This document shows positions 1,675-64,000 of a DNA stretch of 64,000 nucleotides, in pieces. The DNA comes from Schmidtea polychroa (Eukaryota): positions 27,220,001 through 27,284,000 of the forward strand of contig CM097885.1 in the NCBI GenBank assembly GCA_044892525.1, written 5' to 3'. The notes under the pieces were generated by a model. The model had not been told where the DNA came from, ran no database searches, and saw only the letters and a program-made list of their open reading frames with translations. Within the stretch, counting starts at the first letter, position 1. Each line of letters begins with the position of its first letter. The position numbers and the translations under genes are program-made.

Positions 1675-10271
<8,597 letters not shown>

Positions 10272-15570: not shown

Positions 15571-17292
15571 TTACTTGCCATGATTTTCATTGAAACATGT
15601 CAGACAAAACGCTTTCTAGCACGTAAGGCAATGTGTTGCAACTTGTTTGGTTTTTTTCTGAGCTTTTTCTCTGCCTTCATTCTGGGATATTTTTATCGTA
15701 GCACGACTAACATCTTTTGCGAACAATTTTGTTTGCTTCCTGTGTTGGAATTTGGGTCAGCTGATGATTTTGAGTTGGTCCAACTCTGATACTACTAGGA
15801 ATATTAACTCCAATCAGAGCCAATGCAACAGATTTTGTGAAGTCAACAAGAGTATTTTTTTGGGACTATAATATTTATTATGAATGACCCAGCTATCCAA
15901 AATCACCGTGCTGAGTAGCTGAAAAATAACCTTCCTATACCATTTCACACTTTTTCTTGCCGGGCTGTAATATTCAATCATTTGATCCGATAAGTCAATC
16001 CCACCTTTGACTCTGTTGTAATCCACAATTATTGATGGTTTCAATACTGATTCGCCACTTCGATTCCTTTTTCCTGTTTCTATCTTATCTGTTCCATGAA
16101 ATGTGGAAATGAGGAGAATTTCTCTCTTGTCTTGATATTTGACAATTCTGATTCCTATGTCATTAGATGCTCCCTTTATTTCACCCTTCTTCAATTTCAT
16201 TTTCTTCAGATTTTCTGGTAAGTTTCTGCGATTTCTTTTCAAAGTCCCACAGTATTCAGTATCATTAGCCTTTAGATATTTTGCAAGCTCGATACTACTA
16301 TACCAATTATCGGCGACAAACAACCTTCCACAATTTAGGAGTTTTTCTCCAAGGTCGATGATAACAGATCCTGAATGATCTAATCCTGGTCGTTTATTGC
16401 CTGAACCTTTTCCACAATATACTGAAGCATTCCAAATGAAACCGCACATATCACATAGCTTGAAAATTTTTATGCCATATTTGTGGGACTTTCCAGGATT
16501 GTACTGCCTAAACAAAAGCCCACCACGATGAGAAATCATAGTTTCATCAACAGAAATTTCTTCTCCAGGTGTGTAAAGCTGTTGAATGTTGGAGATTATC
16601 ATGCCCATAATGTTTGGAATTTTATGCAACCTGTCCCCAGGTGTGACAGTGTCCTTATTGCTGAAATGCCAATTTTTTAAAATCAATCCAAATCGATTAT
16701 ACGCCATTTGAATGTGATGGAATAGTGGATGAAAAAATATTTGATCCTTTTTCCAGTAATCTTCAATTCTAGGAAATTTCAGAAGTCCTGTCACAATAAT
16801 AATTCCAATAAATTTCTTCATTTCAACTTCTGTAACGTCCTGCCATTTATTCATTCTTGCTCCTCGAGAAAGCCTAGTCTTTGCTAGAAACTGTTGGGCA
16901 TACCTATTCGTCTCGGTAACCATTACTTGAATAATATCACTGTCAAGCATTTGCTCAAAGACCATAGTTGGCGTAACTTCATTTGCTGTAATTCTTTTAT
17001 GAAGTCCAGAATTTCCATTAAAATTTAACTTGTCTTTCCTAGTCAAATCCATGATTCAATTATCAGTTGAAGGTACTGCACTTAAAACAGACTGATTAAC
17101 TGGATGAGGATTACTAGTCTCTTCTTCTTCACTTGAGGAAGATGACGATGTATTTGATTCTTCAACGGGTTCAAACTCATCCTCACTGCTATCTCCCATA
17201 TCATCCAGGTTGGAATTTTCATCACTGCTAATGTCATACTTGTCTAAAAGTTGAGCGAGTTCATCTGGCGTATAGTTTTTTCTCCTTGCCAA
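15571..17292 (-). pseudogene. piggyBac (PGBD4-like) transposase pseudogene
   Basis: SVDETM, VADNWYSS and GGIDLSDQ DDD motifs. In-frame TGA at 17056-17058, frameshift near 15850, and TAG stops inside the C-terminal Cys-rich domain (RC*SC...HCLTC*KAFCLTCF..H). Confidence 0.9.
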
Positions 17293-19964: not shown

Positions 19965-50420
<30,456 letters not shown>

Positions 50421-52787: not shown

Positions 52788-53845
52788 TGTTGGGTTTTGG
52801 ATTATTTCAAGTCGGTTCTCTCTGACTCCTGGTGTTCTTTAAATTAAAACAATGAACGACCCAACGTATATTGAAACAACAGGTTCACAAATTATTATCA
52901 CTCTACAATTACCAATCAAAGTTTTATACGATTCTCCGCTCGGCGTTGATGCTTTGCAAACAAACAATATTCACCTTTTGATCCTTTAGTTCTGTTGACT
53001 CTCGTTTTCCTCGGTTTCTGTTTGGTTTGATCCCTTTTCGCCTTTCCGTATTCTTAATTCTATTTCTTCTTTTCCCTACCTCCCTAATTCGTTTATTAAC
53101 TTTTCCTATCAACTGATTCTTCGAACCCTAGCTGAGGCAGAATGCCGATTTTCTCTGATTTTCCCTTTGCTTATATACTCCTCGAAATCAGGATGACAAA
53201 TGGTTATTGCCGAGCCAATCTTTCGTTTGACATTTTCTCCTACGTGTTTGCTTCGGCTGTCATCCATAATGGTCCAACGAATCCAGATAATTAATGCCCC
53301 TACCAGTCTTCCTACGCGCGCTATCTTCTCCTTACTCTTTTCCCATTAATCATTGTGTCAAACTAATGGGCCCAAATCTTCCTTTTGTTTGCCTTTCTTC
53401 TTGTTTACCCAGCTCGGGTTTCCTTTATCTATCGGGTTCTCCATTGGCTCGGGTTTCCCATTAGCTCGGGTTTTCCATTAGCCAATTAATTAATTAATTA
53501 ACGTTTTCTGTTTTCATACGTTTGAATGTTTTTCGACCCTTCCTAACCCTTTTCTGATAAATCCCTAACCATCATCTTGTTGACCATTAGCTACTCTATA
53601 CCTGTCCCGTTTTCCCATTCGATTTCGATGATTTTTCCATTTATTGATTTTTCTCGGATTTCCGGATTCTCGCCTTTCGTAATTGCCTTTTGCATTTTCT
53701 AATACTGTTTCCATCGCACTTTCCTTTACTATTAATTCTGTGCACGATCCCGCTTTTATTTGCCATTTTTCCTCGCTTACTTTCCAGTTGAATTATTATC
53801 CTAAATTTTATTTAAATTTTTAATTTTAATTTACAGACCTCAACA
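52788..53845 (-). mobile_element. 3' LTR (1058 bp) of a Ty3/gypsy element
   Basis: TGTTG...CAACA termini; immediately preceded on the minus strand by a polypurine tract; related solo copies at 2430-3208 and 51355-51725. Confidence 0.85.
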
Positions 53846-53858
53846 TATCTCCCCCCTT
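53846..53858 (-). promoter_or_regulatory. Polypurine tract (AAGGGGGGAGATA) abutting the 3' LTR
   Basis: The minus strand reads TCGAGGACGAAAAAATTTTTTTAAGGGGGGAGATA|TGTTG. Confidence 0.85.
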
Positions 53859-55667
53859 AAAAAAATTTTTTCGTCCTCGAAATCTATGTTTTGCTGTGAT
53901 TATGTATTATTATTATTATTATTGTTGTCATTATTATCACTATTATTATTATTATTAATATTACCCTTATTATTATTATTACTATTTATCCGAATTATTA
54001 CTTCAAGATATAGACATTTTAATTTTTCAGATTAATTTTATATTTTAATTGCTCTATGAATTAATTAATTATTGATTTTATTGGTTTTAATTATTTTAAA
54101 TTATATTTAAAGTTTTTAGTTATTGCAATAATCGACTTTCAAAATTCATTTTCCAAAAGACCTATTAATTTCCCATTTGCATTTGTCGATATTCCTGTAG
54201 CCAAAACGTCACTCTGAAATGGATCCACAGTCCAATTCTTATTTGCGCAATTGTTTTTATTTTATTTTTGTTTCACTGAAATAAAAATGTACTCTCACAG
54301 TTTCATTTCATTTTTAGTAATACAGTTTTCAAAAGACTTATTTATGGTGTCGACTATAATTTGCCCCTTATTTTATTATACATTTTAAAATTATAAGTTT
54401 GATTTAAAATTTATAAATTAAAAATTTCAATCCTATAAGCTTCAGGATAAATTTCACATTGTGTAATTATATATATATTTTTTTTTTTGTAGAGAAATAT
54501 AACAACATTTCGATGCCTTTGTTATAAACCCAAAAACATTTTCTGTTTGAATTGAAAAAAATGGTTTTGATTTTAAATATATTCTAATTGTATTAATTTT
54601 ATCAGACATTTCTAATCAATGGGAAAATTTTTTTTTCTCTCTTCGATATATTCGGCTTCGTGCAATTGCCGATCATGGACTCAAAACGCCTTGGAAAAGA
54701 GATAAGATAAATTTTTTTCGTCGTGTAAACCGAGATTGGCCAATGTAAACAAAATAGAGGTGATTAATGGGATTTGCTGATTAATTTTTGTCAGAAAGGA
54801 AATAAAATGTACAACACCCAATCAGTTTGCAGTTGTATGTATGTAATGGTAATGAAATTATTTCTCTTCATAAAGAGCAATAAAAATAAACTACACATTT
54901 GATTGGCCATTTGAAAGAGAGAAAATATAGCCTACTGATTTGTATTTAAAAATCGATTTTCGCTAACGAATTATTTAAAATACATTTATTTTTTTTATAT
55001 TAGAGTTTATTTCATTCACACTTATTTATGGTTGACGATTGGGTTATAAAAACCATGTATGCTACCAAACGTCGAAGAAGAAACACAAAATGGTTAGATT
55101 AATTTTTTTTTGTATTAATTGTATAAAAATTCGAATTATTCTCAGTTATTGATTCTCTATCAAAACCGATGATTGATAAGTTGGGGAAAAATCGATATGC
55201 ATTGACAACAATAAATTATGAGAATTATAGCACAGGTTTGAAATATATATTTATCTAATCTGTCGATCAAATCTCAGAATTCCAGCTCAAATCGGAGGTT
55301 CAATAAAATAATGAAAATTTTTTTTTTATATTCTGAAATATTTTTAACAAATGACTTTTTTTTTTGGGTTTATTAATTTATATTTTTAAGATTGAAGTAG
55401 GTTTATTATTTATTCAATTTATGTAACAATTATATCTGATGTTATGAAATATCGGCAATTATAAAGCAATTCAATGATTTGTATAAAATTGTTATTAATC
55501 CTGTTATTTATTAGCATGAGGATTTGAGTGGATATAATAATATTTAGGCATTTGAGTAATGCTTGCAAATTATAATTGGAAATTATTTGAAAATTACCAA
55601 AGAATAATAATATTTGCAGTTCCCTGAAATGTTAGAGATTTAAATGAGAAATAAACTTGAAAAATTA

Positions 55668-55695
55668 CTACTACTATTATTATTACTACTATCCA

Positions 55696-55753
<58 letters not shown>

Positions 55754-55872
55754 TATTGTTACAATTATTACTGTTATTACCACTATCATTACCATCATTA
55801 TTATCAATATTATTATTTTATCAATATTATTATTATTATTATTATTATCAATATTATTATTATTATTATTTA
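55668..55872. repeat. (TTA)n-rich microsatellite
   Basis: Direct observation. Confidence 0.9.
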
Positions 55873-55899
55873 TCACAATCCTACTCCAATTATCGCAAT

Positions 55900-56056
55900 T
55901 ATCGGGACGTCTATTAATTGAGGGAAATAATTTTTATCGGGACGTCTATTAATTGAGGGAAATAATTTTTTTATCTGGACGTCTATTAGTTGGGGTAAAT
56001 AATTTTTTATCGGGACGTTTATTGAGGGAAATACTTTTTATCTGGACGTCTATTAA
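55900..56056. repeat. Tandem array of ~35-bp units (atcgggacgtctattaattgagggaaataattttt), about 4.5 copies
   Basis: Direct observation. Confidence 0.9.
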
Positions 56057-56699
56057 AAATTAATAAATCAAGTAGACTAACGACAGTCTGGTCAGGTTAT
56101 TGTTATGTGGTGAGAATAAAAGAAATTTTTAATAGTATCTGATTAAATTATATTTTGTTACAATTTGCATTTTTTACAATTTTTGTGTGCGAGTTTATGA
56201 ATTCATTAATTGATTAGACTGGCGCCTTTGGTGGAAATCAACAGTAAAATTTATTGAAAATTTCTTATACTATATTAGTAGCGCGATGATATTAGCTGTG
56301 GTTGTTGTTATTGTTCAAGATGAATACGGTTTACCAAGAATATGGATAATATTGTGGTTAATAACAGAGTTGAGCAGTTGATGGGATATGCTTGTGTGTC
56401 TGTCTGTGTGTGTCTTTATGGTTTGATCGATTTTTATGTGCAAAATATTTGTCTAATTTATTCCCAGTCGCAAGGTAATTTATTTATTCTTTTTATTTAT
56501 ATTTTTTCTTTCATCATTATTACCATTATTATTAATATTATAATTTAAAATAATTTTTTGTTATTAATAACTTATTGGTTTATTTCGCTCGCAGCATGGT
56601 AAAAAGTTAATCTCCCCCGCACCGACCGACTCATGATATCACTTGTTTACTCAGCCTGATAAGGTATCTGCGATGAACATTAATATTCCGAATGAATTT

Positions 56700-56845
56700 T
56701 TTACTTATCCTGCGGTTTTTGACGTAGCAGATACTGATAGGCTCTATAATTAATTACCCTGTGGTTTCTTAACGTAGCCCGTGCTGATAAGCTTTCTAAT
56801 TAATTACCCTGTAGTTTGTTAACGTAGTCTGTACTGATAAGTGTT
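56700..56845 (+). repeat. Three ~49-bp tandem repeats with ACGT and GATA motifs, upstream of a TATA box
   Basis: Unit cctgtggtttcttaacgtagcccgtgctgataagctttctaattaattac; CTATATAAG at 56846-56854. Confidence 0.8.
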
Positions 56846-56973
56846 CTATATAAGTGTCTGCTTTACCACTTTTCGTTAGTTTTGTCTTGCCAATCTTGAA
56901 GTAAGCATTTTATATTTTATTTTTCTTTTTCATATTTTTTTTTGAATTTTAGTAACGCCATCCCTCAATTACT

Positions 56974-57686
56974 ATGGACGTAAGTGATTACTTGTCTTTT
57001 GTTATTTTTTTTTTGTTTTTGTGATTCTTTTTACCATGCTGTCCTCAACTATTAGTAATGCGTTCCCTCATAGCAACCGAACATTTGCAATCGCTGTCCA
57101 GGGTAGCCAAACCCCGGTGATTGCAAGTGCTCGTGTTGCTTATTAAATTAACTTATTGATGTTTATTAAATTAACTTATTTACTTTTTAATTTTAATTCG
57201 TTAATTTGTTTATGCAACTACCTACACTCATGTTTTGGGTCATATATTTTTGATTTTTGATTTTGTATTTATACTAAAAGCAAACCTCTAATTACAGCTA
57301 CTCGTATTTTTCTGACAATTTTAGCCGTATTTATACTTATTTATCAATTACTTCCCTGCACTAATTATTTGTCGAGGGCGCCATGGTACGGAGTTTTACA
57401 TAGTATTTATTTCATTTTTCTTTTCAACCCTTACTATTTTAGGCTGTCCCAGAACCTAAGTTTGAGCATCTCGATGTTATGCAATGGTTATTTGACTGCC
57501 ATACTAACAGGTTTATTTAATTTCTTTTTAAGGGTCCCCTTGCCACCGCGTCGAAAGCGATTGAAACGTACCTTTGCCTGTGTGGATACAGGCAGTAGGT
57601 TTGAAAGACGCCCGCCTTGCAATGTACGCAGGGAATGGGACTGTGGCATCCAAAGTCCCGTTCTGTTGGACTCTGATGACGAATAA
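56974..57686 (+). CDS. Predicted antisense spliced mini-gene (~67 aa; basic NLS-like PPRRKRLKR, acidic tail)
   Basis: Coding pieces 56974-56979, 57443-57486 and 57533-57686 join in frame; GT-AG introns, one with TACTAAC; AATAAA overlaps the stop codon. Confidence 0.5.
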
Positions 57687-58215
57687 AACTTTGAATAAAT
57701 GTTCAGCATACCTTTGTTTTTAATTTATGCTAGAAAGGGTGGGGTAGTTGTGTCCCTCTTCGTGAATAGTCTTTGTTACTACTAATGTGAAATTATTCCC
57801 TACTTATTTATAATTTTGTTCTCTCGCCCCAGTGGGTTACCCATTGCTATATAGTTATGCTAATTCATTAATTACTAATCAGCCATGCTCATTTAAGGTA
57901 GTCATTTCATTATTTGCAACATTTATTTGAGTTATTCTATTTGCTCGTTTTTCTTTATTATTCATTTATTTAATTTATCACTTTTTTAATTATTTGTTTA
58001 TATCAATTTGTTTATTCATTTGATTATTTACTTGGTAATCTACTTATTTTTTTATTTAACTATTATCTATCACTGCCAATTATTTCTTTATATCAATTTG
58101 TTTATTTATTTGATTATTTGTTAATTTACTTATATTTATTTAACTATTATTTTTTTTTCCCGAGGACGAAAAACACCAACAGGGTCCGTTTAAATAATTT
58201 ATTTTTTTAGTCTAA

Positions 58216-58452
58216 TTAATTTATCTCACCATCATCTTCCGATTCCTCTATTTCTTCTACTCTCATTCGAAACATCGCGAAATCGGCTTCGTGTTGAAAC
58301 AATAAGATTTCCAAACGGTCCAACCGCCTTTTCAGACGGAAGTTTTCTTCCTCCAAATCTGTTATTCTGCCCTGCATGCTACGAAACTTTTGCTTTAGTT
58401 CTTGCGTACTTGTTTTACACTCTTTGCATGACATCTCCGAGGCTTCTTGCAT
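58216..58452 (-). CDS. 78-aa leucine-zipper/coiled-coil accessory ORF downstream of pol
   Basis: Heptad L19-M26-L33-L40-L47 with Asn37 at an a position, N-terminal CxxC, acidic C-terminus; splice acceptor ttaatttcag 3 nt upstream of the ATG. Confidence 0.55.
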   Translation of the reverse strand: MQEASEMSCKECKTSTQELKQKFRSMQGRITDLEEENFRLKRRLDRLEILLFQHEADFAMFRMRVEEIEESEDDGEIN

Positions 58453-58626
58453 TCTCTGAAATTAAATGATAGTCATTTTTTTGTATCACTCTTTATTCGC
58501 AAAGCATCAACACCTCGCTTCGAATCTCAAACAAATTACACAGTTCATCCTATGGTACTTATAAAACATGCACATTGTTAATATAAATGTAATATATTTT
58601 TATACACTATTCATGCAGATCACAAT

Positions 58627-61600
58627 TTATAGTCTTGTCTCATAATATGAATATGATGGTGGTTGAAGGATAGTTAGTTGTCTCTCTTTTACACATATCA
58701 AGATAGTGATGATTATGAAGGTTATTGATAAGATGAGAAAACCTGTTATTAAAATGTAAATGAGATATTCACAATAGTTGATTGTCAAATCCGAATTTAT
58801 CATCATTAGTTTATTTGAGTTAGGTTTTGTCGTCTCTTGGGTCGGTAATTGGAAAGGTGATGTGGTTGTATCTGATTTTCGTTTCGATTCATTGATTGTC
58901 TTGACTTCCACGAAAACTGTTTGCCATCTGCCTGGTTCGGTTATCCATCGCTGATATTTAACTGTTAATTCCCATGCCGTCTCTAAATCAGAAGTGTAAA
59001 GTGTAAAAAAATGATTACCGGCATCTAATATAGTCAGGGTTTTTTGTTTGTAGATAATAACAACTCTTTCATCATTTCCTGATTTTCTATATATCGTTAC
59101 CGGTCCATTTCCAACACTCAGGGTTATACGATTTGACTCGTCTCTGAGATAGATAGACTGGGTCTCACTCTTAAATCGTGACCATTGGTTTCTCACTACC
59201 GTTCCATTTTCGAGGCATATGTTCACGTAGTAGTTTGCATTAACTGAATAATTTTGATTCATTTTCAATTTCTCGTAGCGGATAAATGATTTTCGCGAGT
59301 TAAGGGTGTCAACATTTAACCCTTGAAATGTGATTCGCACTTTCACCAAGTCCACTGGCTTCCAATATATATTGATTCCATTTATCTCTGGTTCTATTTC
59401 GATCAAGTTTCGCATCTCTTTTGTGTGCACTTCTATCGGAATTTGCGTGTACCACTTTGACATGTTCTGTCTCAACAGCCATTGGTACTTGAAATTTGGC
59501 TTTAACTTTCGTACTGCAAATATATCTTTATCATAATTCAGTTCTACCACTGGTGCCGTATTGTCTAGTAAATCAATAATTTCTATTTGGTCTGCGATCT
59601 CGCATTTACAGCTCCATGCCATATTTGTTAGAGTGGAATATATATGTATTTTCTCCATTCCTCGGATTTTGCTTACCGCATATGGTAAGTCAATCTTTTT
59701 GCCGCTCGCAACTGTTATTAACATCAGCATTATTGCTACATATAATATCTTATTGATGTAGCTGACTGGTGTTGGATTTTTCGTGAATTTCTGTTTCAAT
59801 TTTGTTTGACCCGTTACTTTATTCTGCTTGGATCTTAAGGGGTATCTAGATTCATCTTCCTCTGGCACTAGTTTACATCGATTTGCATGCACAATCATCG
59901 GGTTAGCCTTTTTGCTCCTGAATGGTAATAACTTCAAATTGGTTTCGGTGGTGTCGCACACTTTGTAGGGTCCTTTAAATGGTCTTTGCAATTTAGGCGA
60001 TAAACCTTTGAGAGGTTCCGGCCTGTTCAGATATACTAGATCTCCAATCTTTATGCCATGCGCATGTGCTTTTTTATCGTAGGTTTCTTTATATTTCTCT
60101 TGGTTGTGCTTTATTGTCAAACCGGCTTTAGTCCATACTGACTGCATTCTTTCTTGCATCAATGCTTTATAATCGGGTATCTCCATATATTGTGAAATTG
60201 GTGGTTGGAATTTGAGATCAATCGGCATATTATTTTTCCTTAAATACATCAAATAAAAAGGGGTCTCACCTGTACTTTGATTTACTGCATTTCTGTAGGC
60301 AAATAGACACGGCTTTATGAAGTCGTCCCAATCTTTCTGTTTTCGGTTCACATATGATGAGATCATATTTATCAGTGTCCCATTAAATCGTTCCACTAAT
60401 CCATCAGTTTGTGGATGATATGGTGACGTATTCAATTTCCAAATTCCAAATAGGTCTGTGATTGATTTGAACATCTCGCTTTGAAAGTTCTTTCCTTGAT
60501 CAGTTAACAATTTCTTTGGAGTACCATAGCGAAATATTATGTTTTCCACAAATATTCTAGCAATCGTGTCTGCTTTTTGGTTTGGAATAGCGTATGCCTC
60601 TGGCCATTTGGTAAAATAGTCACAAAAAACAACAATGTATTTGTTTCCTTTTGTTGTTTCCGGTAATGGTCCCAGAATATCCATTGCCGTCATCTCCATT
60701 GGTGCTGCGGGTACTGGCATCGGTTTTAATGGTACTTTAATCTTTTTACCAGTATTTCTGCGGGTGATGCATACTTTGCAACTGTTACACCAATTTTTCA
60801 CGTCTTGCTCCATTGTTGGCCAAAAGTATTTCAATTTTAATCTTGATAGCGTCTTGCGCGTTGACAAATGACCTCCCAACGCTCCATCATGATACTGCAT
60901 CAGTAATGCGTCTCTGTGCTTGGCTGGTATAATAATTAATGCTTCCCCATTTTTCCAACATTTAAGTATTCCATTATGAATTACATATTTGCTGTTTGCA
61001 TCTGTAAGTCGTTTCCAGTCTTGTTCTTTTCTTATTTTGACCGCTTGTTCCATAAATTGTTTTAATTCACTATCGTTTTCCTGATCATTTTGAAGTTCAG
61101 ACATATCATTAACAGCTTTGATTGCAGCGAATATAGTACCTTCCAATTTTTCAGGTGTCCCTTCACTATTACTTTCTGGGATTCTCGACATTGCATCTGC
61201 GTTCGCGTTAGCTTTACCTGTCCGATATTTAATCTCAAAGTCGTATTCTTGGAGGGCAATCGACCATCGTATTAATTTACTGGCTGAATCTCTGTGTTTC
61301 ATTAACCACTGTAATGGATTATGATCTGTATAAACAGTAAATTTTCTGCCCAATAAATATTGTCTAAAAGTAGTAATTCCATACACTAACGCTAACGTTT
61401 CCTTTTCAATCGTTGAGTAGTTTTTCTCGTGAGGCCTCAGTGATCGGCTTGCGTAGGCTATTACGTGGTCCTTTTCACCTTCAAATTTTTGTCCCAATAC
61501 CGCACCCAATGCAACGTTGCTTGCATCCGTCATCAAGATAAATTGTTTCGTAAAATCTGGACATCTTAATATAGGAGTTGTCACTAATTTCTCTTTTAAT

Positions 61601-64000
61601 ATATTGAAAGCATTTTGTTGCATTTGTCCCCAAATAAATTTATTGTTTTTCTTTAGTAACGTATTCAATGGTTGTGGGATATGAGAGAAATCTTTTATAA
61701 ATTTTCTGTAATAGCTTGCCAAACCTAAAAATTGTCTAACCTCATCGGCATCTTTTGGTACTGGGTACTCTTCCACTTTTTTGATGTTATCTGGATTAGT
61801 TTGTAACCCTCGCCGTGATATTATATGTCCTACATAAATCACTTCTGCTTTGCCCCATTCACATTTCGATGGTTTGATTTTTAATTTTGCACTTTTGAGC
61901 CGTTTAAATACAGTTTCTACATCTTTCAGGTGTTCTTCGAAATCATTTGAAAATATTATTATATCGTCGATATATACCAATGCATGTCGAATTCCTCGTA
62001 ACACATAATTCATTCCTCGTTGGAATGTAGCTGGGGCTCCTGTTAATCCAAATGGTAACACATTAAACTCATACAGTCCTTTGCCATCCGAGAACGCCGT
62101 CTTTCCTCTATCTTCCTCTTTTACTCTAAATTGATTGTACCTTTTGTTTAAATCAATAACAGTGAAATATCGTGCCTCTCCCATTTGATCGAACATTTCT
62201 TGAGGTACTGGAATTGGATAAGTGTCTTTCCTCGTAACTTGATTTAGCTTCCTATAATTTACGCAAAATCGTAAGTCTCCATCCTTTTTCTTAACTATCA
62301 CTATTGATGAGAAGAATGGTGACGCACTATCTCGAATTATTCCAAATTCCTTCATTGCTGTAATCTGTCTATCACTTTCATCTTGATGAACGTAGGGGAT
62401 TCTGTATGGCTTTATTTTTATTGGAGTTTCATCTAATAACGGTATTTCATGCTCAATTACATTGGTTAGACCTAAATCATATTCGTGTTTGGCAAAGATA
62501 TCTCGGTATTTTCTCAACAGTTTTGTGAATTCCTTTTTCTGCATCTCATTTAAATCATTGCTTACCACTTCAGGCTCCTTGTACACCTTGACGTTTCTTG
62601 GTATTTTACAATTTGTTTCAATAGACATTTTTGATAATTTTCCCAATTTTGTTTTTGGGTGTAACTGAACCGGTTTCTTACTGCTATTCGTTATATGGAC
62701 TGGTACTATCTGATTTTCCACTTTAACAACTTCGTCACATATCGGTAAATCATATTTTTCGACTAGCGTTTGATTTGGTTCGAATATAAAATCACCATCA
62801 TCCACACTCATGGTATTTGCACAATATACCATCTCCGATTGTGGTGGTATTGTCAATGTCTGATTCACAAACACTTCACCTGCCCTGTGAATTATTTCTC
62901 CTGTTTCTCTTGCTATCAAATTACCTGTCTTTAAGTCAAGTGAGACTCCGTCCAGCTGCTCTAATATATCCATACCGATCAGACATCGTACTGGGCTTCC
63001 CTCCATTATGAGCGCATCGTGCGCTATTATTCGATCTCCAATATGGAATATGACGTTAAGTTGTCCAATTATGTTTAATTCATTTTTTGATAATGACCTC
63101 ACTATTTCGTCGGTAGGCTTTATTCGCATTTTCTCCTTCGCGTTTAATACATTTTCCGATATTATTGTGTGACTAGATCCCGAATCGACTAAAGCTTCCA
63201 CTTTATGTTTGTTCATTTGTATAAATATTCGGGGTTGCTTTCCTCTTTTTGTTAATGTCATCAATGAGTAGTTGCATGGTAAGCCTAACATATTTTTTCT
63301 CTCGATCTCTGCGCTAGAAGGCTCGATTCTCTCTCCTACCATTCCTTCACATTGTAATGCGATGTTTTCCACTGGTTTCATCTCTCGTAATCGATCAACT
63401 GGATACACTGGTGCTGGTTGCATAAATGATTTTGGTATACACAATTTTGTAAACGTGTCTACGCTACTCGCATTCAACAGTGGCTCTTGTAAGATTTGAT
63501 AAGTTCTCAACGCTTCTTTATTCATTCCACTTAGTTCTTGATTGTCAACATATAACGGTGCACTATCACCCTCGTTGTCATTGTCATTGTTCTCGTCTCT
63601 TGAAGGGGTAGTACTAGCGTAGCTCACCTTTTTCTTCTTTAATATTCTCGCTTTGAGTATCTCCAACTCCTGATATTGATGATGAGTAATGAAGAATCTA
63701 GCCAATAATGGTATGCAACCAATTACTAGTTTCCACGACCAACCTGTGATCGCGTATAATCTGTGTGTTGACAGGATCTGCGACATTATTACTTTGATTA
63801 CAACACATATTACATAAATTCCAATCAATCCGGCACATGCTTGTCCAATGAACATAAACTTTCCCCAGATCTTTTTCATTGTATTATACGTCGCTTTCTT
63901 GTAATGATATGGAGTTAACAAATACTCGTAATTTACCTTCCCACTTCCGCTTGGGAGAATTGTATCTACCATTTCCATTATTACTCTCTCTTTCTTTGAT
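58627..64000 (-). CDS. pol: Ty3/gypsy polyprotein (>1790 aa, open past the window end): viral-glycoprotein-like TM region - PR - RT - RNase H - IN(GPY/F) - type I membrane protein
   Basis: PR ALVDSGS (D at 63186-63184); RT LPFGL/YIDD; RNase H TDAS, EKETLA, YTDH, ADAMSR; IN HHCC (HDGALGGH..CKVC), MDILGP, TDQG, VERFNG, KGPYKV. The frame is open from 64000 (SKKERVI) into the listed Met. Confidence 0.95.
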   Translation of the reverse strand, partial: SKKERVIMEMVDTILPSGSGKVNYEYLLTPYHYKKATYNTMKKIWGKFMFIGQACAGLIGIYVICVVIKVIMSQILSTHRLYAITGWSWKLVIGCIPLLARFFITHHQYQELEILKARILKKKKVSYASTTPSRDENNDNDNEGDSAPLYVDNQELSGMNKEALRTYQILQEPLLNASSVDTFTKLCIPKSFMQPAPVYPVDRLREMKPVENIALQCEGMVGERIEPSSAEIERKNMLGLPCNYSLMTLTKRGKQPRIFIQMNKHKVEALVDSGSSHTIISENVLNAKEKMRIKPTDEIVRSLSKNELNIIGQLNVIFHIGDRIIAHDALIMEGSPVRCLIGMDILEQLDGVSLDLKTGNLIARETGEIIHRAGEVFVNQTLTIPPQSEMVYCANTMSVDDGDFIFEPNQTLVEKYDLPICDEVVKVENQIVPVHITNSSKKPVQLHPKTKLGKLSKMSIETNCKIPRNVKVYKEPEVVSNDLNEMQKKEFTKLLRKYRDIFAKHEYDLGLTNVIEHEIPLLDETPIKIKPYRIPYVHQDESDRQITAMKEFGIIRDSASPFFSSIVIVKKKDGDLRFCVNYRKLNQVTRKDTYPIPVPQEMFDQMGEARYFTVIDLNKRYNQFRVKEEDRGKTAFSDGKGLYEFNVLPFGLTGAPATFQRGMNYVLRGIRHALVYIDDIIIFSNDFEEHLKDVETVFKRLKSAKLKIKPSKCEWGKAEVIYVGHIISRRGLQTNPDNIKKVEEYPVPKDADEVRQFLGLASYYRKFIKDFSHIPQPLNTLLKKNNKFIWGQMQQNAFNILKEKLVTTPILRCPDFTKQFILMTDASNVALGAVLGQKFEGEKDHVIAYASRSLRPHEKNYSTIEKETLALVYGITTFRQYLLGRKFTVYTDHNPLQWLMKHRDSASKLIRWSIALQEYDFEIKYRTGKANANADAMSRIPESNSEGTPEKLEGTIFAAIKAVNDMSELQNDQENDSELKQFMEQAVKIRKEQDWKRLTDANSKYVIHNGILKCWKNGEALIIIPAKHRDALLMQYHDGALGGHLSTRKTLSRLKLKYFWPTMEQDVKNWCNSCKVCITRRNTGKKIKVPLKPMPVPAAPMEMTAMDILGPLPETTKGNKYIVVFCDYFTKWPEAYAIPNQKADTIARIFVENIIFRYGTPKKLLTDQGKNFQSEMFKSITDLFGIWKLNTSPYHPQTDGLVERFNGTLINMISSYVNRKQKDWDDFIKPCLFAYRNAVNQSTGETPFYLMYLRKNNMPIDLKFQPPISQYMEIPDYKALMQERMQSVWTKAGLTIKHNQEKYKETYDKKAHAHGIKIGDLVYLNRPEPLKGLSPKLQRPFKGPYKVCDTTETNLKLLPFRSKKANPMIVHANRCKLVPEEDESRYPLRSKQNKVTGQTKLKQKFTKNPTPVSYINKILYVAIMLMLITVASGKKIDLPYAVSKIRGMEKIHIYSTLTNMAWSCKCEIADQIEIIDLLDNTAPVVELNYDKDIFAVRKLKPNFKYQWLLRQNMSKWYTQIPIEVHTKEMRNLIEIEPEINGINIYWKPVDLVKVRITFQGLNVDTLNSRKSFIRYEKLKMNQNYSVNANYYVNICLENGTVVRNQWSRFKSETQSIYLRDESNRITLSVGNGPVTIYRKSGNDERVVIIYKQKTLTILDAGNHFFTLYTSDLETAWELTVKYQRWITEPGRWQTVFVEVKTINESKRKSDTTTSPFQLPTQETTKPNSNKLMMINSDLTINYCEYLIYILITGFLILSITFIIITILICVKERQLTILQPPSYSYYETRL

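Follow-up and report, generated by a model that had tools for sequence, protein, structure and literature searches.

An in-frame class III, chuvirus-like glycoprotein between Gag and Pol of a planarian Ty3/gypsy element

The window analysed here, a stretch of 64,000 nucleotides, ends inside a minus-strand reading frame in which a stretch resembling the end of a viral glycoprotein stands upstream of a retrotransposon protease, and this raises the question of what the stretch is and what it may do in such a position. According to the original prediction, the segment at 63680–64000 resembles the C-terminal anchor of chuvirus-type glycoproteins; the peptide quoted for it proved to be the exact minus-strand translation of 63999–63682. 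Comparison of the last 133 codons with Pfam yielded PF24664 (Monjiviricetes_fusion, E 3.4e-14; score 52 bits, the cut-off being 27), matched at profile positions 512–606 of 653, and no other family at E≤1; thus, the likeness noticed by eye is real. The same profile matched the segment together with its upstream continuation at E 1.6e-91. The GWSWKLVIGCIPLL stretch is less hydrophobic (Kyte-Doolittle maximum 1.4) than the helix at 63861–63763 (maximum 2.5). The basic KARILKKKK run described as following the hydrophobic stretch was present, but at about 63654–63628, just past the segment and approximately 35 residues beyond the strong helix. Considering these matches and the structural ones given below, the segment almost certainly forms the membrane-anchoring terminus of a class III glycoprotein resembling those of chuviruses and herpes gB.

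In the adjoining sequence the frame runs 1500 codons further beyond the window, and a hydrophobic signal followed by a Cys-rich ectodomain was found there, as the original prediction had called for (Table 1). The ectodomain lies between this signal and the TM helix, all signals and helices having been called from hydropathy alone. An AlphaFold2 model of the ectodomain was built from 13 aligned sequences, including P0003, an apparent gene-model chimera that was kept in the alignment; P0010 likewise appears to be such a chimera. The model reached a pLDDT of 60.6 and a pTM of 0.44, with 226 of 541 residues below 50 pLDDT. A Foldseek comparison with the PDB listed 35 rows, every one of them herpesvirus gB, the best at E 6.6e-12 with a TM-score near 0.25. 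Against predicted viral structures, the first eight rows had E about 2e-27 to 2e-25 and 17–21% identity; seven of them were glycoproteins of the chu-like, qin-related, xinmo and similar kinds, and the eighth had no name. Since the model is weak and its matches have TM-scores of 0.2–0.45 with an rmsd of about 30 Å, only the fold class is supported; at this level the fold matches speak for a class III protein with likeness to chuviruses, but do not single out a donor. Sequence-only PDB searches of the ectodomain stayed below threshold (gB at E 0.07). Pfam gave no match to a viral polymerase or nucleoprotein in the element frame, and a single-protein query, which reaches close relatives only, returned no relatives among viral contigs. 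No RX(K/R)R furin site occurs within the element frame, and according to the available text of PMC13524379 this site is not always retained in gB-type env.

The glycoprotein belongs to a 17,243-bp (17.2 kb) LTR element on the minus strand that extends past the window end. Its single frame encodes, in this order, Gag, a ubiquitin-like part, an acidic stretch, a Bcl-2-like domain, a signal, Env, a TM helix, PR-RT-RH-IN, a second signal, a lumenal part and a TM helix; within the window it comprises 1790 aa including the Env anchor and is free of stops through PR-RT-RH-IN down to 58627. The predicted placement of Env N-terminal to, and in frame with, Pol of a Ty3/gypsy element was thus borne out. 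Classification in Ty3/gypsy (Metaviridae) is based on the PR-RT-RH-IN order, the LTRs, the primer site, the polypurine tract and the target duplication. The two LTRs are 99.5% identical (four mismatches and one gap), and the 4-bp target-site duplication of this copy has 4-bp counterparts at copies L014, L018, L020 and L026. The primer-site tRNA was found with a looser tRNA pattern, a stricter first pattern having given none. The ubiquitin-like and Bcl-2-like matches are weak, each below the Pfam cut-off, yet concordant, and the corresponding Bcl-2-like part of the third family described below matched at E 2.1e-6. Because of the early stop in gag, this particular copy cannot yield the full polyprotein from its first ATG. 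The GC content of the window is approximately 28%.

Table 1. Features of the element in 5′ to 3′ order. Positions beyond 64,000 are window-extended coordinates.
Feature	Position	Strand	Basis or remark
5′ LTR	68972-70030 (window-extended)	-	
tRNA-Trp primer site	68947-68964 (window-extended)	-	18/18 bases complementary to host tRNA-Trp 3′ end (plus CCA)
Gag, two CCHC knuckles	67690-68619 (window-extended)	-	
In-frame stop in gag	68500-68502 (window-extended)	-	40 codons into gag of this copy
Ubiquitin-like stretch	66895-67071 (window-extended)	-	E 6.6e-5, under Pfam cut-off
Bcl-2-like domain	65586-65830 (window-extended)	-	E 0.0035, under Pfam cut-off; PDB Bcl-2 E 0.008
Hydrophobic signal before Env	65485-65550 (window-extended)	-	hydropathy
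Env ectodomain, 539 aa, 14 Cys, one sequon	to 65478 (window-extended)	-	PF24664 E 1.6e-91
Final 46 residues of Env ectodomain	63862..64000	-	frame continues past window end
Env ectodomain end, membrane-proximal region, TM helix and second, weaker hydrophobic stretch	63680..63999	-	PF24664, translation
Predicted Env membrane anchor, strong hydrophobic segment	63763..63861	-	hydropathy maximum 2.51; conserved in sister family
Basic run KARILKKKK, predicted cytosolic side	63628..63654	-	translation, hydropathy; topology inferred
Aspartic protease	62947..63240	-	gag-asp_proteas E 7.2e-8
Reverse transcriptase (YIDD)	61819..62295	-	RVT_1 E 1e-31
RNase H	61243..61632	-	RT_RNaseH E 3.7e-40
Integrase (H2C2, rve, C-terminal part)	59892..60930	-	E 5.6e-20 and 1.2e-11
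Post-integrase module, in frame	58627..59766	-	signal 59766-59701, lumenal 311 aa, TM helix 58776-58678, short tail, stop
3′ non-coding region, 4.8 kb	53846..58626	-	no sense ORF of 100 aa
Polypurine tract	53858-53848	-	
3′ LTR, 1058 bp, TG...CA	52788..53845	-	

The element is one of many. The anchor segment had 698 candidate places in the genome, and the 40 that were scored were all 97–100% identical; an exact 24-base motif at the integrase end occurs 200 times, and the family has about 200 copies. Open frames of at least 3334 aa were found at nine of the 68 candidates scored with PF24664, one of the nine being marked as having a stop within its match, and one copy matched the entire 3290-aa query within a single frame, while all ten copies taken from the segment search were broken or deleted somewhere. 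The part from env through the linker was intact in 28 of the 30 top-scoring loci, a count that, like the variant set, is biased towards intact env since the loci were chosen by best HMM score. This variant set consisted of 28 copies, namely 27 of the 30 loci (three were dropped as possible duplicates) and the present copy. Shared env variants comprised 10 non-synonymous and 45 synonymous changes, compared with 71 and 56 among singletons (Fisher p 2e-6). The ectodomain is 70% identical to that of a sister family in the same genome, with 14/14 Cys retained and pN 0.18 versus pS 0.76, and the anchor segment is 72% identical (pN 0.17 versus pS 0.87). These substitution patterns indicate that env is under purifying selection. 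Single contigs covered the element almost end to end in two of four sequencing runs, which may be RNA.

The sister family (14.5 kb, 806-bp LTRs; the copies examined were broken or deleted within Pol) is 80–83% identical to the element in RT, RH and IN and 33–41% in the ubiquitin-like, Bcl-2-like and post-integrase parts (38% in the post-integrase module). Two further families were located with env relatives as queries: a third of about 13.5 kb with frames of 3058–3090 aa, and a fourth that measures 35.5 kb, has LTRs of 5 kb and encodes 4791 aa in a frame including MATH, three CCHC and ankyrin. Their env sequences are 40% and 36% identical to the one described here, respectively, and their RT 53% and 52%; the IN of the 35.5-kb family is 54% identical. 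In all four families one frame encodes a Bcl-2-like motif followed by the signal, env with its anchor, and Pol, and beyond the integrase each of them ends in a variable stretch flanked by a hydrophobic signal and a TM helix. Since env is common to all four, it most likely predates their split.

The lumenal part of the post-integrase module (311 aa) is beta-rich with four sequons, and the module is possibly a fibronectin-III-like type I membrane protein. Most named matches in the Atlas were FN3 or cytokine-receptor proteins (0.84–0.88), which we take as a lead only, and Pfam fn3 appeared in one of five post-integrase modules at E 0.14, not above threshold. A PDB profile search with the module gave no PDB match, FN3 included, a single-sequence fold of the lumenal part reached a pLDDT of only 35, and profile comparison with the module of the third family was negative (probability 0.3%). 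The only homologue found for the lumenal part was one protein (P0005, 19% identity, E 7.7e-7). An RSE1 propeller match in Pfam (E 0.01) was below cut-off and was set aside.

Some copies bear deletions that lead into this module. A 2.9-kb RT-RH-IN deletion is common to four of ten copies, which retain env and whose frame stays open into the post-integrase module; its junction occurs 26 times in the genome, whereas the undeleted form is counted 200 times. In the sister family, a comparable deletion that preserves the frame but has other breakpoints is present in one of two copies. As two in-frame events would arise by chance in 1 of 9 cases, a non-chance pattern in the two families is suggestive only. 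Splicing was rejected as the origin of the RT-IN deletion, its junctions having short microhomology and no GT-AG ends; the contigs of the four runs, which may be RNA, contained no GT-AG joint over the ORF, contigs being prone to drop rare forms. Neither the post-integrase membrane module nor the deletion forms were found in the text passages covered here, which came from PMC6431247, PMC13524379, PMC7642597, PMC13465017, PMC8532177 and PMC13238120.

The polyproteins of alphaviruses and flaviviruses are threaded through the ER membrane. We propose that the polyprotein of the present element is threaded likewise and that Env mediates the fusion of enveloped particles, a reading to which we assign a probability of roughly 0.8. 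Four hydrophobic segments would alternate in such a way that Gag, Pol and the tail are cytosolic and the two ectodomains lumenal. Gag and the cargo would remain in the cytosol until the internal signal starts translocation, and cleavage by signal peptidase would separate Env from Gag and its cargo, leaving the Bcl-2-like domain tail-anchored by the signal. The Env ectodomain would then fold and trimerise in the lumen, and the 63680–63999 segment would halt translocation and send the chain back to the cytosol. This would require an odd number of membrane passes: one, made by the strong helix, or three, if the weaker stretches beside it span the membrane as well. PR-RT-RH-IN would therefore at first form the tail of Env on the cytosolic side. 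Once Env gathers where particles bud, the protease would dimerise and release Gag and Pol, and Gag, Env and Pol would be supplied at 1:1:1 with no need for splicing or frameshifting. Downstream of the integrase, the second signal would direct the export of another type I membrane protein.

Env might also have been kept for another role, such as membrane tethering of Gag/Pol, intracellular budding or receptor blocking against related elements. Purifying selection does not specify function, and the RT-less derivatives retain env, both of which would suit such a role; tethering, however, needs a helix only, whereas the full ectodomain, its 14/14 Cys and the complete class III layout have been kept, and we therefore consider this explanation unlikely. 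The original prediction had proposed that a Ty3/gypsy element acquired the chuvirus-like glycoprotein in an independent capture. The best structural matches are indeed glycoproteins of chu-like viruses, and the captures by BEL/Pao elements that the prediction invoked as precedent are described in the available text of PMC7642597. A recent, separate event is nevertheless improbable: identity to the best viral glycoprotein is only 17–21%, qin- and xinmo-like viruses score alike, no relative was present in the viral contigs as far as close relatives are concerned, and env is common to three other families at 36–70% identity (RT 52–83%), so any capture predates them. That a passive endogenous viral fragment or an assembly chimera lies beside pol has nothing in its favour except the odd layout, and it is hardly conceivable for an env that is in frame, present in hundreds of copies, selected and found in four families, with near end-to-end single contigs in two of four runs.

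Beyond the fusion-protein reading, a bolder one may be formulated, which we regard as speculative and rather doubtful. The planarian elements might be true enveloped viruses with a two-protein entry system, consisting of a gB-type fusogen and a fast-evolving FN3-like attachment or immune-decoy protein; their Bcl-2 mimic would be tail-anchored by the Env signal, and the RT-RH-IN-less derivatives, arising separately in two families, would spread like defective interfering genomes. Were the post-integrase module a second surface protein, the entry system would be more virus-like than credited, and if the proposal is true, cell-to-cell movement of invertebrate gB-type env elements would be open to study with RNAi and proteomics. 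The element illustrates clearly the joining of a class III fusogen to Gag and Pol in one frame of a gypsy element.

Both the in-frame env between gag and pol and the family itself have already been published, and the layout is not new. For Burro, giant gypsy elements of planarians, an env placed in frame after gag and before pol was described in 2019 (PMC6431247); the available text gives the polyprotein as Gag, Ubi/SUMO-like, BCL2-like and env in frame before PR (citing Grohme et al. 2018), and Burro1/GYPSM1 as longer than 30 kb with an ORF of approximately 4,870 aa, MATH, BIR, ankyrin and three CCHC. Accessible parts of PMC13465017, PMC8532177 and PMC13238120 also cover Burro elements, the first of them citing a functional study of Burro1. 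The present element resembles them in its single ORF, the position of env and the ubiquitin/SUMO-like and BCL2-like motifs upstream of it, but differs from Burro1/GYPSM1 in having 17.2 kb, 1.06-kb LTRs, 3334 aa and two clear CCHC. Pfam gave no match in it to MATH, BIR or ankyrin, nor to a dUTPase between PR and RT, where a spacer of approximately 200 aa has no match at E≤1; the published call of a dUTPase-like stretch at this place in Burro, as worded in the available text, used HHpred (PMC6431247). The description of Burro1 is fitted by the 35.5-kb, 4791-aa family of the same genome, which shares env (36%), RT (52%) and IN (54%) with the element.

The closest published entry in the accessible part of PMC13524379 is Platyhelminthes_Rhabditophora_Smed_errantivirus_2, placed there in Ty3/gypsy as a GAG-ENV-POL element of configuration C1a with an HSV/gB-type ENV and 215 copies. 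Its 251-aa ENV segment is identical to the present frame at 249 of 251 positions, above a threshold of 98% identity, as compared by eye over that segment alone, and the family described here appears to be the same. The 200 matches of the integrase-end motif fit the 215 copies. The published table, as available, shows neither an LTR nor a primer site (tRNA type "none"), whereas 1.06-kb LTRs and a tRNA-Trp site were found here, and neither the organisation in a single frame nor the cargo of Bcl-2-like and ubiquitin-like parts nor the post-integrase module comes up in the accessible text. That text argues for ancient inheritance of gB-type env within gypsy lineages. The BEL/Pao element Anakin, as described in the available text of PMC7642597, is likewise a retrotransposon with a chuvirus-like glycoprotein, but it belongs to another superfamily and host, while here the glycoprotein is encoded in a single frame with gag upstream and protease downstream of it. 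With the glycoproteins of Jingchuvirales/Monjiviricetes and with herpesvirus gB, the present Env shares PF24664 and the class III fold; it differs from them in its low identity (10–21%) and in being fused to Gag and Pol.

The polyprotein of the 17.2-kb Ty3/gypsy element continues in frame beyond integrase into a membrane module, whose equivalents were present in all four element families; it is possibly fibronectin-III-like, a resemblance that we treat as a lead only. The Bcl-2-like motif was likewise retained in four of four families, and the Env signal, the hydrophobic segment ahead of the Env ectodomain, directly adjoins the Bcl-2-like domain and could serve as its tail anchor.

Several copies of the element outside the window (stretches L016–L019, L026–L027, and L032–L033) had lost RT-RH-IN through a common in-frame deletion of 2.9 kb, the junction of which occurred 26 times across the genome. 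In the sister family, one copy (L067–L069) carries a comparable in-frame deletion that arose independently.

An exon-like ORF in the window matched the N-terminal region of dynein heavy chain; the element may sit in or near a dynein gene. The window also contains two transposase ORFs, a DDE_Tnp_1_7 type, which we take to be piggyBac-like, and a hAT type interrupted by one stop. A second gypsy element with broken RT-RH-IN lies immediately upstream of the 5′ LTR. Elsewhere in the genome, tRNA-Trp genes form a tandem array with a spacing of 284 bp, and the tRNA-Trp pattern, allowing one mismatch, gave 893 matches genome-wide.

Features in the window and in other stretches (L) of the same genome
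Feature	Position	Strand	E-value
Dynein heavy chain N-terminal ORF	window 7032-7850	-	2e-15
DDE_Tnp_1_7 transposase ORF	window 15814-17055	-	3e-82
hAT transposase (BED finger, dimerisation domain)	window 22179-24053	+	
ATT microsatellites and 35-50-bp tandem repeats, within the element's 3′ non-coding region	window 53880-56060 and 56700-56850		
Post-integrase module (signal, 311-aa beta-rich part, TM)	window 58627-59766	-	
2.9-kb RT-RH-IN deletion (equivalent)	window about 62660-59770		
Bcl-2-like domain, past the window's end	L011 7830-7485	-	
Second gypsy element	L012 8031-9998	-	
Burro1-like element, 35.5 kb, frame of 4791 aa	L094-L099, G000:C1 107.067-107.103 Mb		
tRNA-Trp array	L101, G000:C4 from 55.022 Mb		

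Additional ORFs accompany the polyprotein in two of the related families. The third family (13.5 kb; L082–L087) carries one of 500–600 aa 3′ of the polyprotein, and the Burro1-like element has five (269–533 aa) downstream of its long frame. The env of the Burro1-like family gave near-equal scores among the 94 copies scored.
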